The notes beneath the pieces are model-generated. The model saw only the letters and a program-made list of their open reading frames with translations, was not told where the DNA came from and searched no databases. From positions 64,001 to 128,000 of IMG/VR virus record IMGVR_UViG_3300047494_000112: a stretch of DNA of 64,000 nt; one strand, written 5' to 3'. The stretch comes from a virus. The translations under genes were made by a program, and so were the position numbers. Shown here piece after piece: positions 3,727-46,413 of this stretch. Position 1 is the stretch's first letter. Every line of letters starts with the position of its first letter.

Positions 3727-4785
3727 TTACTTTTCTTCTCCTGTTAATGCTAGTAGTTTTGCCATTATCAAATCTTGTTCTGGAACCAAAAACGTTGCTA
3801 GTTCTTTTTTTATTCCAACCAATACCTCATGCACCTTTACAATCTTTTTCAAAGGTATTTTATCAACACTTACAGCATCCAACAATTTTTTTCTAGCTTC
3901 ATTTTGCCAGCCATCAATTTCAACTTTTGTGTCTAATAAAAAACCGTTATGAAATAACAGATACATGCCAACAGAAATATATTCATTCGCCTTCAATTTC
4001 CGTACTGAGGTAATTATTCCTTTTGGTCTATTGCTATAGACACAAGCAAGCATTTTAGCTGCAAGCATATCTATGCCAGCGCCATAAGATTCTAAAGCTT
4101 GTGCCAAGGCAAGCTTCAAGTTTTTACCACAACCATGATATGCCATAATAGTGCTCTGCAAAAGCCCAATTGCTGATCTAGGCTCAGCATAAGCATTTCG
4201 CGCTATTGAAAGCAAAGTTTTATCGTTTATAAAATCAACTTTTTCTTTTTTGCAAATGTGTCTTAATCTAGGCACCAAATCTTCCGGTTCTAAACCTCTA
4301 AGAGTTAAATGAAGAGAACGCCCTACAATTGTTTTTAGTAATTTTTCAGGTTCATTTGTCACTAATATCCAAACTGTATTTCGCAGCGGTTTTTCCAAAG
4401 GCTTTAGTAAAGCTGAAGCCGCTGCTGTAGACAACCGCTGTACTTCATCTAAAATAATGACACGAAAATTTGCTTTTGGCTTAAATTGAGCCAATCGAAT
4501 TAATTTTTCAATGTCCTCTTTGTTACCCTCTGCACCGATATTATGATCTAATATATCAGTTGTTGCTGTACCATAAGGTAACTCGTTAATTAGATAGGAT
4601 ATTAGATACGCTAATGTGGATTTCCCTAAACCGGTTTGACCTGAGATTAATATTGTGCTAGGTACTTGCTTGCTTTTTAAAAAACCTTTGATAATTGATA
4701 CAACATTTGGTTGCCCTACAACATCTTCTAAGGTTTGTGGCCTATATTTTTCAGCTAATTGAATTGCGGATCCAAAATCATTCAT
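3727..4785 (-). CDS. DnaX (Pol III gamma/tau)-like clamp loader AAA+ ATPase
   Basis: LAEKYRPQTLEDVVGQ, Walker A GQTGLGKST, Walker B IILDEVQ, ALLKPLEKP. Confidence 0.9.
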   Translation of the reverse strand: MNDFGSAIQLAEKYRPQTLEDVVGQPNVVSIIKGFLKSKQVPSTILISGQTGLGKSTLAYLISYLINELPYGTATTDILDHNIGAEGNKEDIEKLIRLAQFKPKANFRVIILDEVQRLSTAAASALLKPLEKPLRNTVWILVTNEPEKLLKTIVGRSLHLTLRGLEPEDLVPRLRHICKKEKVDFINDKTLLSIARNAYAEPRSAIGLLQSTIMAYHGCGKNLKLALAQALESYGAGIDMLAAKMLACVYSNRPKGIITSVRKLKANEYISVGMYLLFHNGFLLDTKVEIDGWQNEARKKLLDAVSVDKIPLKKIVKVHEVLVGIKKELATFLVPEQDLIMAKLLALTGEEK

Positions 4786-8827: not shown

Positions 8828-9337
8828 TTAGGTGAGTCTCCATTCCAAATAGTTACTCTGTCATCGGTGTAGAAAGTACGTTTGATTTCTCTATCACCAG
8901 ATTTTACCTGCATAGTCACATCTAGCTTACCCGGCTTGGTACTCAGCGAAATATGAGTAATCCAGTATAGAACCCATTCCCATCTAGAGTTACCGTAATA
9001 TTTATCATAGACATTATCTTGGCTAGCAATAGCATCTCCTACTTTTAGGTTTATTACTAAACGACTAGTTTCCATTTTTAGTCCCCAGCAATTTGCACGT
9101 AATAGGTATCCAGATATACACGTTTTTGCATTGCTATTCTTTCTTTAGCTTCATTAATTTCATACCTCCACAATGTTCTACATCTGAACAGTGTGAAAAG
9201 CCTGAAGCCCTACAACTAGGGCAGTATAGCCCTGAAGGATTATCACTTTCAGGAGCATTAGGTTCTAATTTAAGGTCTTCGATGTAGCTTTTTGTTTTGA
9301 GCACAAAATTAATCCTTAAACGGGTCAAACTCCCCAC
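8824..9337 (-). other. two short hypothetical ORFs (8824-9075, 9134-9337)
   Basis: ORF track; tile the minus-strand operon. Confidence 0.5.
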
Positions 9338-10688
9338 GACCGGCCATTGCTACGGCGAACGGATGTAAGGTGCGTTCAATTTCAATTGTTCCGTAGTGAT
9401 GTCCTAAAACAGAAGGCAGCCTTCTGTAAGCCATTGGACTCTCGTCTAAATCACCACCATGTATTGTTACATTTCTTGCAGTCAACCACTTGTGCCACTC
9501 TTCATTTGAAAACCTTCGTTTGGCTTCTTTACGGCCAAACAAACGACCAGCACCATGAACAGTTGAATACAAACCTTTTGCTGCTCTATCATTTTCTACG
9601 CCATGAACAATCACAGCATCATCACCCATAGAGCCGCCAACAAAACCGCGTTGGTTGGGAAACGCTGGCGTTGCACCTTTACGCACTACCCACAACATTT
9701 TACCCTCGTGTTCTTCTTGCCAAGCGTAATTGTGGTGGTTCTCAACGTAGTCAAGTTCTTCACCACCAATGATTTGTTTTACTCTACTAAGCACCCAACG
9801 ACGGCCTTCTCTAGCGTAATCACCTGCAAGTGTCATTGCAGAAATGTAGCGTTGACCTAGTTCACTAGCGACATTAACTACAGTGGGAGTTTCCCAAATG
9901 CCATCTTTGCCACCAGCCGCTTTTAGATATTTGGTTGCAGAAGAGTGACCTAATCCACGTGATCCAAAATGAACTCCTATCCATATTCTACAGTCTTCAA
10001 TTGAGCCACCAAATTCAGGATCATCCAAAGGCGTCTTGTCAATCAGAAGATCTACGTAGTGATTACCTGACCCTACTGTACCTAACTGTGACATTGCTTT
10101 GCTTTTGTAATCCATCCTATCTGCTTGACGCCATCTCTCGGTGTCATCAAACAAGGCGCTTTCCACTGGCTCATGATTGGTTCTGCCAACACCGAATGAA
10201 ATATGTTGCGTAATTTTCTCAATCAGACCTGGAATGTCGTGCATAATATCACGATATTCGATATCAAGCTGAATTGCACCACAACCACATCCAATGTCAT
10301 AGCCTACACCAGATATGCTGATCTGATCTTCATATGCAATGACTCCGCCAACAGGTTGAGCATAGCCAAGATGGCCATCAGCGCATAGTACGCCACTGAC
10401 AACATTTCCAACCTTCATGCAGTTTTGCATTTGTAGTCTAGTATTTTCTTCGTGCTCGCCGTACACTAGCAATGGTGCGTTTTGATATTTTTCTTCTTGA
10501 GGTGGTGCCACAAATTTTTCTGCTTCATGCTGCTTGAACTCTTGACGAGCTGATTCCTGGTATAAGCACCAGCGCATCATGGTCCTGCCTTTGTCACCCA
10601 TTGGTACACGTTCATCTGGATCTAAACCATCAATTAGGCACAACTCTCTGGCACGAGTCTCGTATGGATTAGCTTGACGTTCGTTCAT
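9309..10688 (-). CDS. rtcB: RtcB RNA 2',3'-cyclic-phosphate/5'-OH ligase
   Basis: DGHLGYAQPVGGV, GYDIGCG, GTVGSGNHY, HFGSRGLGH, NHHNYAW, VRKGATPA, GSMG, STVHGAGR, DESPMAY. Confidence 0.96.
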   Translation of the reverse strand: MNERQANPYETRARELCLIDGLDPDERVPMGDKGRTMMRWCLYQESARQEFKQHEAEKFVAPPQEEKYQNAPLLVYGEHEENTRLQMQNCMKVGNVVSGVLCADGHLGYAQPVGGVIAYEDQISISGVGYDIGCGCGAIQLDIEYRDIMHDIPGLIEKITQHISFGVGRTNHEPVESALFDDTERWRQADRMDYKSKAMSQLGTVGSGNHYVDLLIDKTPLDDPEFGGSIEDCRIWIGVHFGSRGLGHSSATKYLKAAGGKDGIWETPTVVNVASELGQRYISAMTLAGDYAREGRRWVLSRVKQIIGGEELDYVENHHNYAWQEEHEGKMLWVVRKGATPAFPNQRGFVGGSMGDDAVIVHGVENDRAAKGLYSTVHGAGRLFGRKEAKRRFSNEEWHKWLTARNVTIHGGDLDESPMAYRRLPSVLGHHYGTIEIERTLHPFAVAMAGRGEFDPFKD

Positions 10689-23479: not shown

Positions 23480-24232
23480 ATGAGCAAATTACATGAAATT
23501 TTGGCTGTTGAAGGTGACCTCAAGAAAACCGCAACGGTAGTTCTTGATGAAGCCAAAAATACTTTGGCGAAAAAACCTGACCATTTCTTGAAAACAGCCA
23601 CGGTAACAAAATACTTTGATGAGAATGACATTAAGCTAAACACCGACGAGTATAAAGCTCTTGTCACTACCGTTGGAGATAAATTGGAATACGTTGGCGA
23701 GATGGTTACTCGTTACTATGATGCTTATCTGCAAAAAGAAGCAACAAATCAGCACGCAAAAGCTGACGTGGTAATAGATGGCAATGTTTTTCTCACGGAT
23801 GTTCCGGTAGTTGTTCTCTTAGGTATGGAGACAAAGCTAAAAGAGTTGCGTGACGTGTACGAAGCCATTCCTACACTACGTCCAGGCCCGGTTTGGGAAA
23901 TTGATCCAAATGAAGGCAAGGGTGTGTATCGTGCCAAGCATGATGAAAAGCGTTTCTTGACAAAGAAAACTCGAAAAGCTTTTGTTAAATCTCCGGCAAC
24001 TGACAAGCATCCAGCTCAGGTGGAGACAATTGATGAGGATGTTGCAGTTGCAGAGCGTGTAGTTACAACTTGGTCTAGCATGTTGTCTGTAACTGAAAAG
24101 TCTTTGCTGTTGGATAGGTTGGACAATTTGATCCAGGCTTTCAAGAAAGCACGTCAGCGTGCAAATGAAGCAGAAATTGTGCCTGCAGAAATGGGTAAAA
24201 AGATTTTCACTTACCTACATGCAGGTACCTAA
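23480..24232 (+). CDS. conserved protein of unknown function (MSKLHEILAVE...HPAQV...KARQRAN type)
   Basis: GGAG SD; resembles a helical family I recall from actinobacteria and phages (DUF7873-like; recall, not searched). Confidence 0.65.
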   Translation: MSKLHEILAVEGDLKKTATVVLDEAKNTLAKKPDHFLKTATVTKYFDENDIKLNTDEYKALVTTVGDKLEYVGEMVTRYYDAYLQKEATNQHAKADVVIDGNVFLTDVPVVVLLGMETKLKELRDVYEAIPTLRPGPVWEIDPNEGKGVYRAKHDEKRFLTKKTRKAFVKSPATDKHPAQVETIDEDVAVAERVVTTWSSMLSVTEKSLLLDRLDNLIQAFKKARQRANEAEIVPAEMGKKIFTYLHAGT

Positions 24233-24240
24233 CAAATAGA

Positions 24241-24551
24241 CATGGTTCCGTCAACTTCACCGTGACGTTGACGTGTTGAGCCATGCACAAGGGTAAACTA
24301 AGCCTAACGCCTAAATCTCAAAATTATCATAATGATGGCCTGTGTCGAAAGCAGTGAGCCATTATTTTTGACCCACCAAAATTATTGGACAAGGCTGCAC
24401 TATGTTCTGATAAGCCAAAATACAATCGGGTCGCTGGTTCAAATCCAGCCTCTTCCTCCAAACTTTTATGGAAGAGTAACTCAGTGGTAGAGTACGATTT
24501 TTCATGATCAGGCAGACAGTAACTGAATACAGCGAATAGATCCAGTATTCA
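24241..24551 (+). ncRNA. structured RNA containing a circularly permuted tRNA-like domain
   Basis: AATCG 24424-28, GGTC, T arm GCTGG-TTCAAAT-CCAGC, CTCTTCC-T-CCA to 24460, 9-nt linker, GGAAGAG 24470-76, TA, D arm ACTC-AGTGGTA-GAGT, A, CGATT 24495-99; flanking helices. The outer boundaries are approximate. Confidence 0.85.
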
Positions 24552-24618
24552 TCATGGCCGAATAGTAAGGCAATAGCTTTGTAAGCTATGGATGCGGGTG
24601 CGATTCCCGTTGATGTAA
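24548..24618 (+). pseudogene. degenerate tRNA-Thr(TGT)-like cloverleaf
   Basis: TTCATCA/TGATGTA acceptor (one mismatch), GCC/GGC D stem, ATAGC-TTTGTAA-GCTAT, GCGGG-TGCGATT-CCCGT; non-canonical T loop, no CCA. Confidence 0.7.
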
Positions 24619-24627
24619 ATATACATA

Positions 24628-24655
24628 GGGGTGGTGGAAGGGTATCCACCACCCC
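24628..24655 (+). terminator. 11-bp GC-rich hairpin closing the RNA locus
   Basis: GGGGTGGTGGA-AGGGTA-TCCACCACCCC; weak U tail. Confidence 0.6.
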
Positions 24656-25101: not shown

Positions 25102-25884
25102 ATGATCAAAATTTGGATAATGTCTGACCTTCATACTGAAATTACTGGACAAGAATTGCCTATCACCGACGTACCTGAATGTGATTATATTGTTATGGCA
25201 GGTGATTTTTCTAGAGCGTCCCTAAACACACTTCGAAATTTGGCAGGATATTTAGGTAACTCTACAGCCGATATTATTTATGTTGCCGGTAATCATGAAC
25301 ACTACAAATCATTCAGGTCTGTACCGGAAGCCATAAAAACTCTTGAGTCAGATTCACGGAATTTCAAATCACTGTATTTTGCTGAAAACAAGACAGTGAC
25401 TTTTTCAGGTATTCGCTTTATCTGTGCTACTTTGTGGACCGACTACAATTTGTACGGTGATCAGAACAATCACATGAATGTTGCCGAGCGTAGTATGAAC
25501 GATTTTAGCTTAATTCAAGGTGAACATTTTCCTTATTTGCGAGCTATAGACTGTATAGATTGGTATCACAAGTCTTATCAGTTTATCAAAGACGAGCTAT
25601 TAAAGTCTTTCGATGGTAAAACTTTAGTAGTCACTCACCATTTGCCTTCAGAAAAATCCATAAATCCTGTGTATGGAAAATCTAGTTTGAATCCTGCCTT
25701 TGCTAGCAATGCAGAAGAGCTAATTGCGTTAGAGCCAGACCTTTGGATTAACGGACATACTCATAGTAGCACCGATTATTATATCGGCAAGACTCGTATC
25801 CTTTGTAATCCACGTGGCTATTTATTTCGTAATGGTGAATACGAGAATAAACAGTGGGATCCTAAACTTGTCGTGGAGATTTAG
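25102..25884 (+). CDS. calcineurin-like metallophosphoesterase
   Basis: SDLH, AGD, GNHEH, VVTHH, GHTH motifs. Confidence 0.92.
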   Translation: MIKIWIMSDLHTEITGQELPITDVPECDYIVMAGDFSRASLNTLRNLAGYLGNSTADIIYVAGNHEHYKSFRSVPEAIKTLESDSRNFKSLYFAENKTVTFSGIRFICATLWTDYNLYGDQNNHMNVAERSMNDFSLIQGEHFPYLRAIDCIDWYHKSYQFIKDELLKSFDGKTLVVTHHLPSEKSINPVYGKSSLNPAFASNAEELIALEPDLWINGHTHSSTDYYIGKTRILCNPRGYLFRNGEYENKQWDPKLVVEI

Positions 25885-25944
25885 CATGATTCTAGAAAAG
25901 ACCTATTCAGCTTACAACTGGAAAGAAAAACCTAAACTAGAGTA

Positions 25945-26727
25945 TTGGTGGCCAAAATGAAAGAACAGATATTAACCTCCTTGTACCACATTCAAAAAGA
26001 AAAGGCTGTTCAAATTCTATTTGCAGTAGAAAGTGGCAGTCGTGCTTGGGGCTTTGCTAGCCCTGATAGCGATTGGGATGTCAGGTTTGTTTATGCTAGG
26101 CCTATTCGAGACTATGTTAGATTAAAGCTGATACCTGACCATTTAGATTATCAAGACAAAGAAAATGACATTGATTGCACAGGTTGGGATATTCGTAAAG
26201 CTTTATCTCTTCTGTTAAATGGCAATCACGCAATTCGTGAATGGATTAGGTCTCCTATTGTATATGTAAATTTTGAAGACAGCATTGCTAAATTTTCAGC
26301 AATTGCTGAGAGAACTCACGTTAAAACTCGTCTAATGTACTCGTATCGACACATTTTGATAAAGTGCATTAGAGATTATTTGGACTTGGCTACCGAACAG
26401 GTAAATTTAAAAAAGTATTTTTACGGTATTAGGTCCACCTTGGTGATGAAATGGCTTGAAAGTAACGAAGGATTTGTTCCTCCGATAGAATTGCATCAAT
26501 TACTAACCGAAGTAGATATTAGTAATGAAGTGTTGCAAGAAATTGAGCATTTGTTGGAGTTGAAGCAAAAGAGTTCTGAGTTAGGCTTAGGTGCAAGACT
26601 AAAGGCAGTAGATGAAATGCTGTTTGAATATTCTGGTAAATTGGGAGAGAACGCTGATCCAAAACACAGCCAGGTTTTATTGGATCAAGTTGATGAGCTA
26701 GTGTACACAATTACTAAGAGAGCATAG
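25945..26727 (+). CDS. RlaP/YcgL-type Pol-beta nucleotidyltransferase
   Basis: AVESGSRAWGFASPDSDWDVRFVY, GWDIRKAL, EWIRSPIVY, KKYFY. Confidence 0.88.
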   Translation: MVAKMKEQILTSLYHIQKEKAVQILFAVESGSRAWGFASPDSDWDVRFVYARPIRDYVRLKLIPDHLDYQDKENDIDCTGWDIRKALSLLLNGNHAIREWIRSPIVYVNFEDSIAKFSAIAERTHVKTRLMYSYRHILIKCIRDYLDLATEQVNLKKYFYGIRSTLVMKWLESNEGFVPPIELHQLLTEVDISNEVLQEIEHLLELKQKSSELGLGARLKAVDEMLFEYSGKLGENADPKHSQVLLDQVDELVYTITKRA

Positions 26728-26966: not shown

Positions 26967-28583
26967 ATGGCAAAGAGGAAAATGAAATTGACCGTAATTG
27001 AGAAACACAAGGTTGCGATATGGCATGACCATAATCATGATGAGGATTATACAGGATTAAGACTGGCTGTTAAATCTGCTTTTGAAAATGCAATCGCAGC
27101 GGACAAAGTTTTCTTTATGACAGATGCAGATGATTTGTATGGAACATATTTAAAAGCAATACCTGAGGCCGGGCGCAAAGTTCATACCTGTCATGCTTGC
27201 CGTAGATTTATCCAGCAATATGGTGCCTTGGTCCGTGTAAAAGAAGATGGTACCTTGCAATCTGTATTTTGGAATAGTAAGCTAGTGCCTGATTTTTATA
27301 ATGAGATAATTGAACGTCTTCAAAAGAAGGTTGAAAAATCAAAAATCATCAGGCCATTTGTGACTTCAGAAAAAACTTTGGGAACTCCAAAGACAGGCAA
27401 CTGGCATCATTTTGCTGTAGAGATGCCAACTGAGATGGTTTACAAAGGTAAAGTTCTTTCAGCTTTTCAACGTGCAGCTGAAATTAAAGAAAATTATTTA
27501 CAAGTAGAGTCAGCACTAAAGGAGTTCAAAACTCCAATGCTTGATGCTGCTTTATCTTTGTTTACCAGCGAAAGCTTAAATCGCCCTGAAAAGTTTATTG
27601 GTCCGGTCAAATTTTTGCGTGATTTAAAGGACAGACCAAAAGGTAATAAAGGTATCAACCGTTTGTGGAAGGAAGTAGCTATAGCTCCAAATGGTTTTTG
27701 TCATCCTCGTGCGTCTGTTGTAGGCAGCCTGTTGTCTGACTTAGCTGAAGGCAAAGATTTTTTAACTGTTAAGCGTAACTTTGCTTATCAAACAAAATCT
27801 GACAATTATCAGCGAGCAAAGGAAGCACCTTCAGAGGGCAACATTAAAGCTGGAGAAGATATTATCAAGAAGCTAGGTGCTGAAAGATCTCTATATCGTA
27901 GATTTGCTCACATGGGAGATATTTTAAAGTTTACCTGGCAGCCCGCTCAAGAAAAAAGAGCTAAACCCAGCTCAGTATTTGGTGATTTGAAGACACGTAA
28001 GGCTTTAGATACAACTTTATCAGCACCAAAGAGTATAATGACCTGGTACAAATTTTCTAAAGATGTTTTACCTCAAGCACAAAAATTAGAGTTTAAAGCC
28101 CCAAGTCGAGGTAATTACGTTGCGTTGACTACTGCTCTGTATAAAGATGCTCCACCTATCCTTAAATGGGATATGGAAGATAACCGTAATCCTGTTGCCT
28201 TGTATGTTTATACAAACGGATCATATGCTAATGAATGGAGTTTAACAGCTAATGCTTGGGTACAAGTTAAGGCAGTTATTCCTTATCCTACACTTTGGGG
28301 CGACGTGCAATATGATTATCTGGGTAAAGGAGCAATTCTTTTGTTAGAAGGCTGTGTAGATCAAAAAACTCCAAACATGTGCTTGTTCTCTGAAACGCTA
28401 ATAGGTGAATTGTATCCAGCACGTTCTACAATTGAAGCTTTCTCAAATAGCAACTATCTTGCTGGTAAAGACAATGCAGACGCGTGTGGCTATAATTTGA
28501 ATACTTCTGGCTTCATGAATTTAGATGTTCGTGTAACAATTGGTGAAGCTGTCTCAACATATAGAATTGATAGGTGGGACTAA
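26967..28583 (+). CDS. large conserved-looking hypothetical protein (538 aa)
   Basis: ORF track; HTCHACRRF, WHHF and GFCHPR motifs. Confidence 0.75.
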   Translation: MAKRKMKLTVIEKHKVAIWHDHNHDEDYTGLRLAVKSAFENAIAADKVFFMTDADDLYGTYLKAIPEAGRKVHTCHACRRFIQQYGALVRVKEDGTLQSVFWNSKLVPDFYNEIIERLQKKVEKSKIIRPFVTSEKTLGTPKTGNWHHFAVEMPTEMVYKGKVLSAFQRAAEIKENYLQVESALKEFKTPMLDAALSLFTSESLNRPEKFIGPVKFLRDLKDRPKGNKGINRLWKEVAIAPNGFCHPRASVVGSLLSDLAEGKDFLTVKRNFAYQTKSDNYQRAKEAPSEGNIKAGEDIIKKLGAERSLYRRFAHMGDILKFTWQPAQEKRAKPSSVFGDLKTRKALDTTLSAPKSIMTWYKFSKDVLPQAQKLEFKAPSRGNYVALTTALYKDAPPILKWDMEDNRNPVALYVYTNGSYANEWSLTANAWVQVKAVIPYPTLWGDVQYDYLGKGAILLLEGCVDQKTPNMCLFSETLIGELYPARSTIEAFSNSNYLAGKDNADACGYNLNTSGFMNLDVRVTIGEAVSTYRIDRWD

Positions 28584-44466: not shown

Positions 44467-46413
44467 ATGACCGGTGAAATTGATATCTTTGAAGAGATTA
44501 AACTCTCAAACAGCTTTCATGACGCAGAAAAAATGTCAATGCGTGATTATCTAGATCTATGCAAAGTAGATAGCTCTGCTTATGCTTCAGCTCCAGAGCG
44601 CATGTTAAAAGCAATTGGAAAACCCATTAAGCTGGACACGTCAAAGGACGAACGTCTTTCCCGAATTTTCTATAACCGTACTATCAAAGTCTATCCAGCT
44701 TTTGCTGACTTCTATGGTATTGAAGAGGCAATTGAATCTATTGTAAACTTTTTTACTCATGCTGCACAAGGTTTGGAAGAGCGTAAACAAATTTTGTACC
44801 TACTTGGCCCAGTTGGCTCCTCCAAGAGCTCTTTGGCTGAGCGTCTAAAACACTTGATGGAAAATCAGCCAATCTATGTCTTGGCAACCAAAGATCATGG
44901 CATGTCTCCTATTTTTGAATCGCCTTTAAGCTTGTTCATTAAAGACGAACAGATTGAAAAAATTGAAAAGAACTACAACATTCCTCGTTCCTATATGCCA
45001 GGAATAATGTCGCCTTGGGCTGTCAAGCGTTTGACAGAGTTTAAAGGAGATATTTCTCAGTTTGTTGTTCACAAAATTTACCCAAGCAAGCTGCAACAAA
45101 TCTGTGTTGCAAAAATTGAGCCAGGTGATGACAACAATATGGATATTGGCTCGATGGTCGGCAAGGTTGACCTTCGTATGCTTGAGAAATTTCCGCAAAA
45201 TGACACCGATGCTTATAGCTATTCAGGTTCCATGAATAGAGCCACTCAAGGCGTAATGGAATTTGTTGAAATGTTTAAAGCCCCGATAAAAATGCTGCAT
45301 CCGTTGCTAACTGCAACGCAAGAACGTAACTATATGGGTACTGAGAATATTGGTGCTATACCGTTTGACGGCATCATTTTGGCTCACTCAAACGAGTCTG
45401 AATGGGCAACTTTTAAGCATAACAAAAATAACGAAGCTTTTATTGATCGTGTTTACACAATCAAAGTGCCTTATTGCTTGCGAGTATCTGAAGAAGTCAA
45501 AATTTACGAAAAGCTTATCCGACATTCCAATCTACAAAACAACCCTCTAGCTCCGCATACATTGGAAATGTTGGCGCGCATGTCGGTTCTATCTCGCTTG
45601 CATGAGCATGAGAACAGCAACTATTTCAGTAAGATGCGTGTGTATGATGGTGAGTTCATTAAAGAGACTGATCCTCACGCTAAAACAGTTCAAGAGTATC
45701 GTGATGCAGCAGGTCAAGATGAAGGCATGACCGGCATCTCTACTCGGTTTGCGTTCAAAGTTCTTTCGGCCACATATAACTACGACTCTGAAGAAATCTC
45801 TGCTGACCCTGTTCATTTGATGCTTCAAATTGAGAAAGCAATCAAGAAAGAGCAGTATCACAAGGATTTGGAAAACAAATATATTTCTTTCTTGCAAGAA
45901 ACATTGGCGGCAAAGTATCTTCAATTTATTGGTGATGAAATTCAGAAAGCTTATCTGGAGTCATACAAAGACTATGGCCAAAATATGTTTGAACGCTATA
46001 TTGATTTAGCTGACAACTGGCTTGAAGATAAAGATTACAAAGATCCTGATACAGGTCAGCTAATGAATCGAGAGCTGATCGATAAAGAACTATCAAAAAT
46101 GGAAAAACCTGCAGGTATTGGTAATCCTAAAGATTTCCGAAATGAGGTTGTCAAGTTTGCTTTGCGAGCTGCAAAGAATACTGGCAAGACTCCTGCTTGG
46201 GATTCTTATGAAAAGATAAGAGACGTAATTGAAAAGCGCATGTTTTCAAACGTTGAAGATTTGCTTCCTATTATCAGCTTTGGCACAAAGAAAGACGCTG
46301 AGACTGACAAAAAACATAATGACTTTTTGGCTCGTATGAAAGAGCGTGGCTATACGGAACGTCAGGTTCGTCGTACTGTTGAATGGTACGTGCGAGCTAA
46401 AGGATCCATGTGA
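44467..46413 (+). CDS. prkA: PrkA/YeaG family AAA+ ATPase/serine kinase
   Basis: LYLLGPVGSSKSS, PGDDNNMDIG, EFVEMFKAPIKMLHPLLTATQE, HSNESEW, NNEAFIDR, GMTGISTRF. Confidence 0.96.
   Translation: MTGEIDIFEEIKLSNSFHDAEKMSMRDYLDLCKVDSSAYASAPERMLKAIGKPIKLDTSKDERLSRIFYNRTIKVYPAFADFYGIEEAIESIVNFFTHAAQGLEERKQILYLLGPVGSSKSSLAERLKHLMENQPIYVLATKDHGMSPIFESPLSLFIKDEQIEKIEKNYNIPRSYMPGIMSPWAVKRLTEFKGDISQFVVHKIYPSKLQQICVAKIEPGDDNNMDIGSMVGKVDLRMLEKFPQNDTDAYSYSGSMNRATQGVMEFVEMFKAPIKMLHPLLTATQERNYMGTENIGAIPFDGIILAHSNESEWATFKHNKNNEAFIDRVYTIKVPYCLRVSEEVKIYEKLIRHSNLQNNPLAPHTLEMLARMSVLSRLHEHENSNYFSKMRVYDGEFIKETDPHAKTVQEYRDAAGQDEGMTGISTRFAFKVLSATYNYDSEEISADPVHLMLQIEKAIKKEQYHKDLENKYISFLQETLAAKYLQFIGDEIQKAYLESYKDYGQNMFERYIDLADNWLEDKDYKDPDTGQLMNRELIDKELSKMEKPAGIGNPKDFRNEVVKFALRAAKNTGKTPAWDSYEKIRDVIEKRMFSNVEDLLPIISFGTKKDAETDKKHNDFLARMKERGYTERQVRRTVEWYVRAKGSM

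Follow-up and report, generated by a model that had tools for sequence, protein, structure and literature searches.

What kind of RNA, if any, is encoded in the short interval between a DUF7873 gene and a tRNA-Thr gene of the IMG/VR virus record IMGVR_UViG_3300047494_000112, and which protein might such an RNA serve? The window analysed here is a stretch of 64,000 nucleotides (nt) of that record (positions 64,001 to 128,000), and coordinates given without a locus handle refer to it. The original prediction, made from the letters of this DNA, placed at 24395-24515 a circularly permuted tRNA-like RNA in which the 3′ half, ending in CCA, precedes the 5′ half, and suggested that processing could yield a chargeable two-piece tRNA mimic, a decoy or a Ro60-type scaffold. 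The analysis below shows that the element is a permuted tRNA mimic with the architecture of the Y RNA YrlA and, in this jumbo phage, the second half of a conserved two-gene module headed by DUF7873; in the reading that appears probable, the RNA would be processed and would form a particle with the DUF7873 protein. To our knowledge, Y RNAs and their tRNA-like YrlA relatives have so far been understood only in partnership with Ro60. If a mimic built in this way is indeed coupled to another protein, it would represent a module that can be reused with different protein partners.

Permuted tRNA mimics with compensating stems

Direct reading of the sequence showed that every component of the permuted domain, and every coordinate, listed in the original prediction is correct (Table 1). 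The order T arm, acceptor stem, D arm was said to be that of YrlA, which is borne out by the sequence, by the Rfam alignment and by covariation in 14 relatives. Both strands of the anticodon-stem analogue run into the flanks and the anticodon loop is absent, while the full CCA is genomically encoded. An additional AAAA/TTT extension of the pairing is weak, and no support for it was found. The element was also expected to escape a standard tRNA scan; indeed ARAGORN makes no call there, its output for the window being limited to ordinary tRNAs for Ser, Asn and Thr(UGU), the same three that Rfam returns at gathering thresholds.

Table 1. Features of the permuted element and of the unit that contains it (window coordinates).
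Feature	Position	Strand	Basis or remark
Permuted tRNA-like domain with closing stems (CTGC/GCAG, CTGAT/ATCAG)	24395-24515	+	Sequence, Rfam YrlA, model R1
Outer stem pairs	CTGC 24395-24398 with GCAG 24512-24515; CTGAT 24407-24411 with ATCAG 24507-24511	+	Sequence
Anticodon-stem analogue, 3′ strand AATCG	24424-24428	+	5/5 pairs with 24495-24499
Variable loop GGTC, 4 nt	24429-24432	+	Sequence
T arm GCTGG-TTCAAAT-CCAGC	24433-24449	+	Sequence, Rfam; 98.6% of cells paired across the family
Acceptor 3′ strand CTCTTCC	24450-24456	+	7/7 pairs with 24470-24476
Discriminator U (T in DNA), then CCA	24457; 24458-24460	+	Sequence
Linker AACTTTTAT, 9 nt, A/U-rich	24461-24469	+	Sequence
Acceptor 5′ strand GGAAGAG, then UA	24470-24476	+	Sequence, complementarity to 24450-24456
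D arm ACTC-AGTGGTA-GAGT	24479-24493	+	Sequence, Rfam; 96.4% of cells paired across the family
A, then anticodon-stem analogue 5′ strand CGATT	24495-24499	+	Covariation
DUF7873 (PF25283) gene, 250 amino acids	23480-24232	+	Pfam 244.5 bits; proposed protein partner of the RNA
Leader between DUF7873 and mimic; 9-bp hairpin at ~24331-24368, then a T run	24233-24394	+	Sequence
tRNA-Thr(UGU), 33 nt past the mimic	24548-24618	+	ARAGORN, Rfam 57.6 bits
Terminator-like hairpin of 11 bp (8 G-C) at the end of the RNA-only unit	24628-24655	+	Sequence

Relatives of the element were identified in viral contigs by three pattern scans, in which matches were filtered by the complementarity of the strand preceding CCA to the 7 nt before the D arm. 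Tandem paralogous tRNAs were removed from the matches with ARAGORN; the loci L060, L035, L233, L169, L236, L209, L202, L197, L170 and L166 were dropped as tandem or paralogous tRNAs. All seven acceptor pairs were present in 16 of the 119 matches of the second scan, where ∼0.1 would be expected. In total, ∼20 analogous elements were found in other viral contigs, and a further 12 were located within or close to sequenced phages, displaying the same order of T arm, acceptor strand, (N)CCA, linker, acceptor strand and D arm, with unrelated stem sequences that compensate each other. CCA was not a requirement in the third scan, which was exhaustive and revealed N-CCA at the tRNA register in 11/12 true permuted elements, compared with 38/51 ordinary tRNA dimers.

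The stems of these RNAs covary. In a MAFFT alignment of 14 cores 90.5% of the pair cells are paired, compared with 65% in shuffles and at most 48% when the partners were slid against each other. The anticodon-stem analogue, which was not used in the selection of the relatives, exhibits changes on both sides at all five pairs in the 14 cores, and at least four of these five pairs form in 10/15 permuted elements vs 13/51 tRNA dimers. These data show that the structure and covariation of the permuted RNA are far beyond chance. R1, a covariance model built from the family cores, scores the window element at 88.8 bits, while tRNA dimers of the same genome reach no more than 30 bits. The model also recovered extra members with linkers of 4-11 nt and closed-loop variants; among the relatives as a whole the linker ranges from 2 to ∼90 nt and the stems are kept. 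It should be noted that an R1 score alone fails to separate members, as tRNA dimers reach ∼60 bits in tRNA-rich loci. A megablast search of phages with the locus gave no match, and blastn of the element returned only tRNA T arms and tRNA dimers.

DUF7873 and the mimic recur together in phages

The original prediction suggested a look at homologues downstream of the gene family represented by the gene at 23480, and this comparison yielded the link between DUF7873 and the mimic. In the window the DUF7873 stop codon precedes the element by 162 nt on the same strand. When all of the window's neighbouring open reading frames (ORFs) were used as tblastn queries, DUF7873 was the only one shared and was found directly upstream of the mimic, on the same strand, in nine distinct loci that had been selected through the RNA (32-46% identity). 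The other neighbours, RtcB, RlaP, a metallophosphoesterase and a 538-amino-acid protein, were not common to the family loci in these searches.

DUF7873 is encoded by 75 sequenced phage records with very different hosts, enabling the association to be tested in reverse. For this test 11 isolate-phage representatives were chosen by the protein alone and were joined by L005, the sole relative that came from a search of loci on the basis of DUF7873 only. In all 12 protein-selected loci a permuted mimic with a 7/7 acceptor stem lies downstream, within ∼1 kb, on the same strand. The module is found in phages of Rhizobium, Klebsiella, Vibrio, Ralstonia, Gordonia, Arthrobacter and cyanobacteria. R1 scored at least 36 bits in the unannotated gap downstream of DUF7873 in 9/11 isolates and gave a weaker score in Pseudanabaena phage PA-SR01, while the element of a Microcoleus phage, which carries an insert of ∼90 nt, was read by hand. 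In L005 the element is 860 nt downstream of the gene and has a linker of ∼80 nt. The 14 R1 matches in the isolates all contain 7/7 acceptor stems, the sequences of which are mutually unrelated. In these elements CCA is at register in 8/14 and CC in 10/14, and the linkers comprise either 2-5 nt or 20-34 nt. Two mimics are arranged in tandem in four of the isolate phages, and the annotation of phage FBKp24 places a promoter between DUF7873 and the RNA. These data show that DUF7873 followed by a permuted mimic recurs in phages whose hosts span at least four bacterial phyla.

The DUF7873 family comprises at least 449 sequence clusters of proteins of ∼250 amino acids, none of which is named. The AlphaFold2 model of the protein (mean predicted local distance difference test (pLDDT) score 87.6) displays long helices and long β-hairpins, and conserved residues of the family comprise H5, K68, D81, K86, N90, R124, W139, D142, H177, Q180 and D187. 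The fold had no PDB sequence, NCBIfam or Foldseek match, VIA-align gave generic long-helix matches only (Z ≤8.7), and ESM Atlas returned only the protein's own family. A literature search retrieved no paper mentioning DUF7873 or PF25283 and nothing relevant on permuted tRNA in phages; as far as searched, the coupling of DUF7873 to the mimic without Ro60 is not in print. The coupling would give the family its first functional handle, and the presence of the module in cultured phages with laboratory hosts, such as RHph_Y65, FBKp24, phiRSL1, Phendrix and Racecar, makes it directly testable.

Class, processing and protein partner of the mimic

In a permissive scan the Rfam YrlA model (RF02553) matched the element over its full length (24405-24516) at 33.9 bits (E ∼1e-6 for the 187-kb record). 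The match does not reach the gathering score of 69 bits, which says little on membership because the YrlA-like copies adjacent to TROVE, the Ro60 gene, in phages also score just 33-41 bits on this model (33.5-41.2). A strong YrlA match together with a nearby Ro60 gene would, according to the original prediction, have made the element a known Y RNA; neither was found, the match being sub-threshold and a Ro60 gene missing from the record. The RNA is best described as a variant of the YrlA-type tRNA mimic, not as a new class. In bacteria and phages YrlA likewise comprises a permuted T arm-acceptor-D arm domain without an anticodon loop, with flanks that pair shut. In classical YrlA, however, the acceptor loop is closed and a free CCA is lacking, the Ro60-binding motif GNCGAAN0-1G is on the 5′ strand, and the RNA is encoded beside rsr/TROVE. 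The window element departs from this description in four respects: there is no Ro60/TROVE gene, the motif is out of register, N-CCA is encoded and followed by the 9-nt linker, and the conserved neighbour is an upstream DUF7873 gene.

In the paper that defined YrlA, the RNA is bound by Ro60 and has a permuted tRNA as its effector domain (Chen et al. 2014, PMC4201824). The acceptor stem of the Mycobacterium smegmatis YrlA, like that of the window element, comprises 7 bp. RNase P cleaves this RNA both in vivo and in vitro, and with nibbling of the 3′ end and completion of the CCA an RNA in two pieces results (PMC4201824). The YrlA structure paper concurs on this processing (Wang et al. 2018, bioRxiv 10.1101/312249). 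This is the pathway that the original prediction had proposed, and thus an RNase P cut and a CCA end that generate a two-piece mimic are not new. In contrast to the window, where the full CCA is encoded and there is no Rsr gene, the M. smegmatis RNA is bound by Rsr and encoded beside it, and its CCA is only partly genomic.

Several other RNAs resemble the element in part. The b7a-tRNA is found with a Band-7 protein in RNA-repair neighbourhoods and is sometimes interchangeable with YrlA (Burroughs and Aravind 2016, as summarized in 10.1101/312249); it provides the nearest published idea of a non-Ro60 protein partner for a tRNA-like RNA, although in that summary it is described as resembling authentic tRNA. 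No Band_7 signal was detected in 34 DUF7873 members (E up to 1), and this genome contains no Band_7 gene. Thermus phage phiLo encodes Ro60 together with Yrl1 and Yrl2, RNAs that probably interfere with host RNA metabolism (PMC12135203). These are also phage-encoded Y-RNA-like RNAs, but two features defined them, a stem-bulge-stem with CGAA and binding to the phage Ro60, and no tRNA-like CCA module or DUF7873 is described for them. In two-piece transfer-messenger RNA (tmRNA) the T arm and the CCA-ended acceptor strand likewise precede the 5′ acceptor strand, and the intervening segment is removed. Such tmRNAs, however, have G3-U70, pseudoknots and a tag reading frame and lack a true D stem, none of which applies to the window element, in which position 3 is A-U and for which neither ARAGORN nor Rfam calls a tmRNA. 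Finally, Cyanidioschyzon merolae and other algae have circularly permuted tRNA genes that also place the 3′ half first, and the acceptor, at first a closed loop, is opened by RNase P or RNase Z. The algal genes yield real tRNAs with an anticodon loop via a circular intermediate and a splicing endonuclease, whereas no anticodon stem-loop would be recoverable from the window element after processing.

The explanation we regard as probable is as follows. The RNA would be transcribed together with the neighbouring tRNA-Thr, and the tRNA-processing machinery would open its acceptor loop through an RNase P cut at 24469/24470. Exonucleases would trim the 3′ end back to the CCA at 24460, removing the linker AACTTTTAT, which would leave a tRNA mimic in two pieces, nicked and with its CCA end free. 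Loop opening and trimming are proposed by analogy with M. smegmatis YrlA, and are consistent with the freely varying linker and with N-CCA, which is kept at the tRNA register in most members. The mimic may then work as a particle with DUF7873 in place of Ro60, acting as a scaffold or competitor on tRNA-handling enzymes or on tRNA-directed defence; this role is suggested by the location of the mimic among tRNA genes and, in this phage, beside RNA-repair genes. A more specific proposal, that DUF7873 and a processed, CCA-ended two-piece mimic constitute an undescribed phage ribonucleoprotein, a Ro60-independent equivalent of the Ro60-Y RNA particle that during infection engages host enzymes processing or targeting tRNA, in phages of Proteobacteria, Actinobacteria and Cyanobacteria, is put forward tentatively, as a possibility that we think somewhat doubtful.

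A number of observations weigh against the DUF7873 particle and the processing that would produce its RNA. The single-sequence fold energy of the element is no better than that of shuffles (z = −0.16), and as the single sequence provides no thermodynamic signal the case rests on comparison with relatives. The tRNA-like fold has an energy of −26.3 kcal/mol vs −29.5 kcal/mol for the minimum free energy fold, which contains the T, acceptor and D arms but neither the anticodon-stem analogue nor the outer stems. An outer long-range stem is present in almost all members of the family, and that of the window is the weakest. As CCA is absent from 6/14 isolate elements and some loops comprise only 2-5 nt, loop opening may not be general. 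Ten RNA-bearing records, including a complete genome of 455 kb, contain no DUF7873, indicating that the RNA is not strictly dependent on the protein. Both the RNA and DUF7873 occupy tRNA clusters, where adjacency by chance is somewhat more likely. DUF7873 itself is mildly acidic (pI 6.3) and is without a recognisable RNA-binding fold. In addition, the IMG/VR record, at 187,324 bases, is only ∼81% complete, and the host may supply Ro60.

The completeness of the record is central to an alternative that we consider unlikely, in which the element is an ordinary Ro60-bound YrlA Y RNA, Ro60 comes either from the host or from the fifth of the genome that has not been sequenced, and adjacency to DUF7873 is incidental to the tRNA cluster. 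The full-length Rfam match fits such an RNA, TROVE-adjacent copies scoring no better, and the DUF7873-linked element is within 4.5-6 kb of TROVE in three phages. Furthermore, the leader sequence GUCGAAAG (24344-24351, + strand) is an exact match, and the only one, to the Ro60 motif GNCGAAN0-1G, and a Ro60-sized protein with DUF2828 and von Willebrand factor A (VWA)-like features adjoins the RNA in three other loci. However, no TROVE, DUF2828 or DUF7788 gene is present in the 187-kb record, which also speaks against the Ro60-type scaffold envisaged for this phage by the original prediction. TROVE is likewise missing from 10 of the 11 isolate module genomes (one partial), occurring in the remaining one and in 2/14 metagenomic records; Ro60-type genes are thus absent from this record and from most module genomes. 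Where TROVE is present, in three phages, a separate YrlA-like RNA lies close to it, in addition to the DUF7873-linked copy. The motif in the window leader is in a hairpin loop and not in the 5′ strand of the closing stem, which reads CUGAUAAGCC. Moreover, the motif is not enriched in the family, as 3/26 leaders carry it, a result that 57/500 shuffles match, and plain CGAA is slightly under-represented in the 26 leaders. The occurrence of GUCGAAAG in the leader is consistent with chance.

We think it less probable still that the RNA acts alone through its CCA end, either as a chargeable two-piece tRNA or as a decoy for anticodon nucleases or tRNA sensors, which was the preferred view of the original prediction. 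A 7-bp acceptor stem, an in-register N-CCA, which is shared by 11/12 members, and canonical T and D loops would suit such a role. Possible aminoacylation of the cleaved M. smegmatis YrlA was raised by Chen 2014 (PMC4201824), and Hughes 2020 proposed YrlA as a competitive anticodon-nuclease inhibitor. The Cys/Gly-like identity that had been read from the window alone is however not supported: among the relatives any of U, C, G and A occurs as the discriminator, and G, U or A at position 1. There is no G3-U70, long variable arm or anticodon, and hence no evident synthetase identity set. As no such set is conserved, aminoacylation of the mimic is judged unlikely from its sequence. The six isolate elements that lack CCA are difficult to reconcile with charging, while an RNA without an anticodon loop would be poor bait for loop-reading enzymes, and the anticodon-nuclease decoy is thus not supported. 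Neither role explains the conserved DUF7873 gene. It is very improbable that the element is a functionless relic, derived from a rearranged tandem tRNA pair or a two-piece tmRNA fragment. Its location in a tRNA cluster, the ability of tRNA dimers to mimic the pattern, and partial Rfam matches to beta_tmRNA (18.8 bits) and tmRNA_permuted (12.2 bits) could be viewed in this light, but the tmRNA matches are far weaker than that to YrlA and the hallmarks of tmRNA discussed above are missing. In addition, the halves are complementary to one another (7/7 and 5/5 pairs), neither is part of a complete tRNA, and the dozens of independent members with compensating changes demonstrate selection.

The YrlA-like RNAs that accompany TROVE were read in two of the three module-bearing phages, and in both the acceptor stem is closed by a GCAA tetraloop (L237:7403-7517 and L238:5589-5653); one bears an exact GNCGAANG, and that of L238 has an exact GGUCGAAUG upstream. 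The TROVE-side copies of RHph_Y65 are at L308:1149-1263 and L308:1328-1402. The L238 locus, a viral contig of 238 kb, also contains a tmRNA gene (4212-4642, + strand; Rfam 55.2 bits vs a gathering score of 47), which shares a tRNA cluster with TROVE, the closed YrlA and the DUF7873 module.

Two groups of proteins were considered as possible counterparts of Ro60. In L071:10334-11800 (−), L239:2817-4304 (+) and L266:12372-13832 (−), contigs without DUF7873, a DUF2828+DUF7788 protein of ∼490 amino acids adjoins the mimic. These proteins exhibit a weak VWA match over the C-terminal half and are Ro60-like in size and layout; neither a PDB sequence search nor BLASTP established kinship to Ro60. The Ro60-sized 538-amino-acid ORF of the window was rejected as a hidden Ro60: it had no Foldseek match to Ro60, its best VIA-align match (Z 5.2) was unrelated, it displayed no BLAST similarity to two phage TROVE proteins, and neither a local Pfam search nor a PDB sequence search gave a match.

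Neighbouring genes and other loci

The apparent unit comprises, in order, DUF7873, a leader with hairpins, the mimic, tRNA-Thr and the terminator-like hairpin (Table 1), and the tRNA-Thr(UGU) is probably part of the same transcript as the mimic. A normal tRNA starts ∼110 nt past the T loop in the window and in seven other family loci, two of which also encode Thr(UGU).

Genes for RNA repair are located on both sides of the unit. A metallophosphoesterase and an RlaP nucleotidyltransferase are encoded downstream of the mimic (25102-26727, +), while RtcB (9309-10688, −) is ∼14 kb upstream on the opposite strand. RlaP adds nucleotides to damaged RNA 3′ ends (10.64898/2025.12.29.696909), and in jumbo phages its distribution mirrors that of RNA ligases (PMC7824862). 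Such genes are in keeping with tRNA repair, although they are particular to this phage. The 538-amino-acid protein (26967-28583, +), 2.4 kb downstream and following the phosphoesterase and RlaP, is a member of PF26675 (phrog_1735), a phage family that is large and has no name; the model of the protein is confident (pLDDT 87) but without a clear structural match, and Foldseek gave only weak, recurring matches to ATP-dependent ligases and a capping enzyme (E 0.5-1.8). Further along the window is an unusual phage gene for a YeaG/PrkA-like AAA serine kinase (44467-46413, +), which displays 55-60% identity to genes of Enterobacter phage LAU1, of Ralstonia phage RsoM2USA and of huge uncultured phages, those of the last two being closest. 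Further tRNA clusters, seen as tRNA-dimer matches of R1, lie at ∼128,500-133,000 of the record, just past the end of the window.

In phage records permuted mimic RNAs are unannotated or mis-annotated. Part of the mimic of Klebsiella phage FBKp24 is annotated as ‘tRNA-Sup-TTA’ (L307 2518-2597), and ARAGORN calls the closed YrlA beside TROVE in L237 (7420-7516) ‘tRNA-Ser’. In L262 a closed, extended-hairpin variant of the mimic is flanked by paralogous genes for GIY-YIG (SegE-like) endonucleases (39-779 and 1488-2159, both on the − strand), which may reflect homing-endonuclease traffic around the RNA gene. The L005 locus, on an unrelated viral contig, additionally contains a match to the int-alpA RNA (120-187, +) at 35.3 bits, compared with a gathering score of 35.8.

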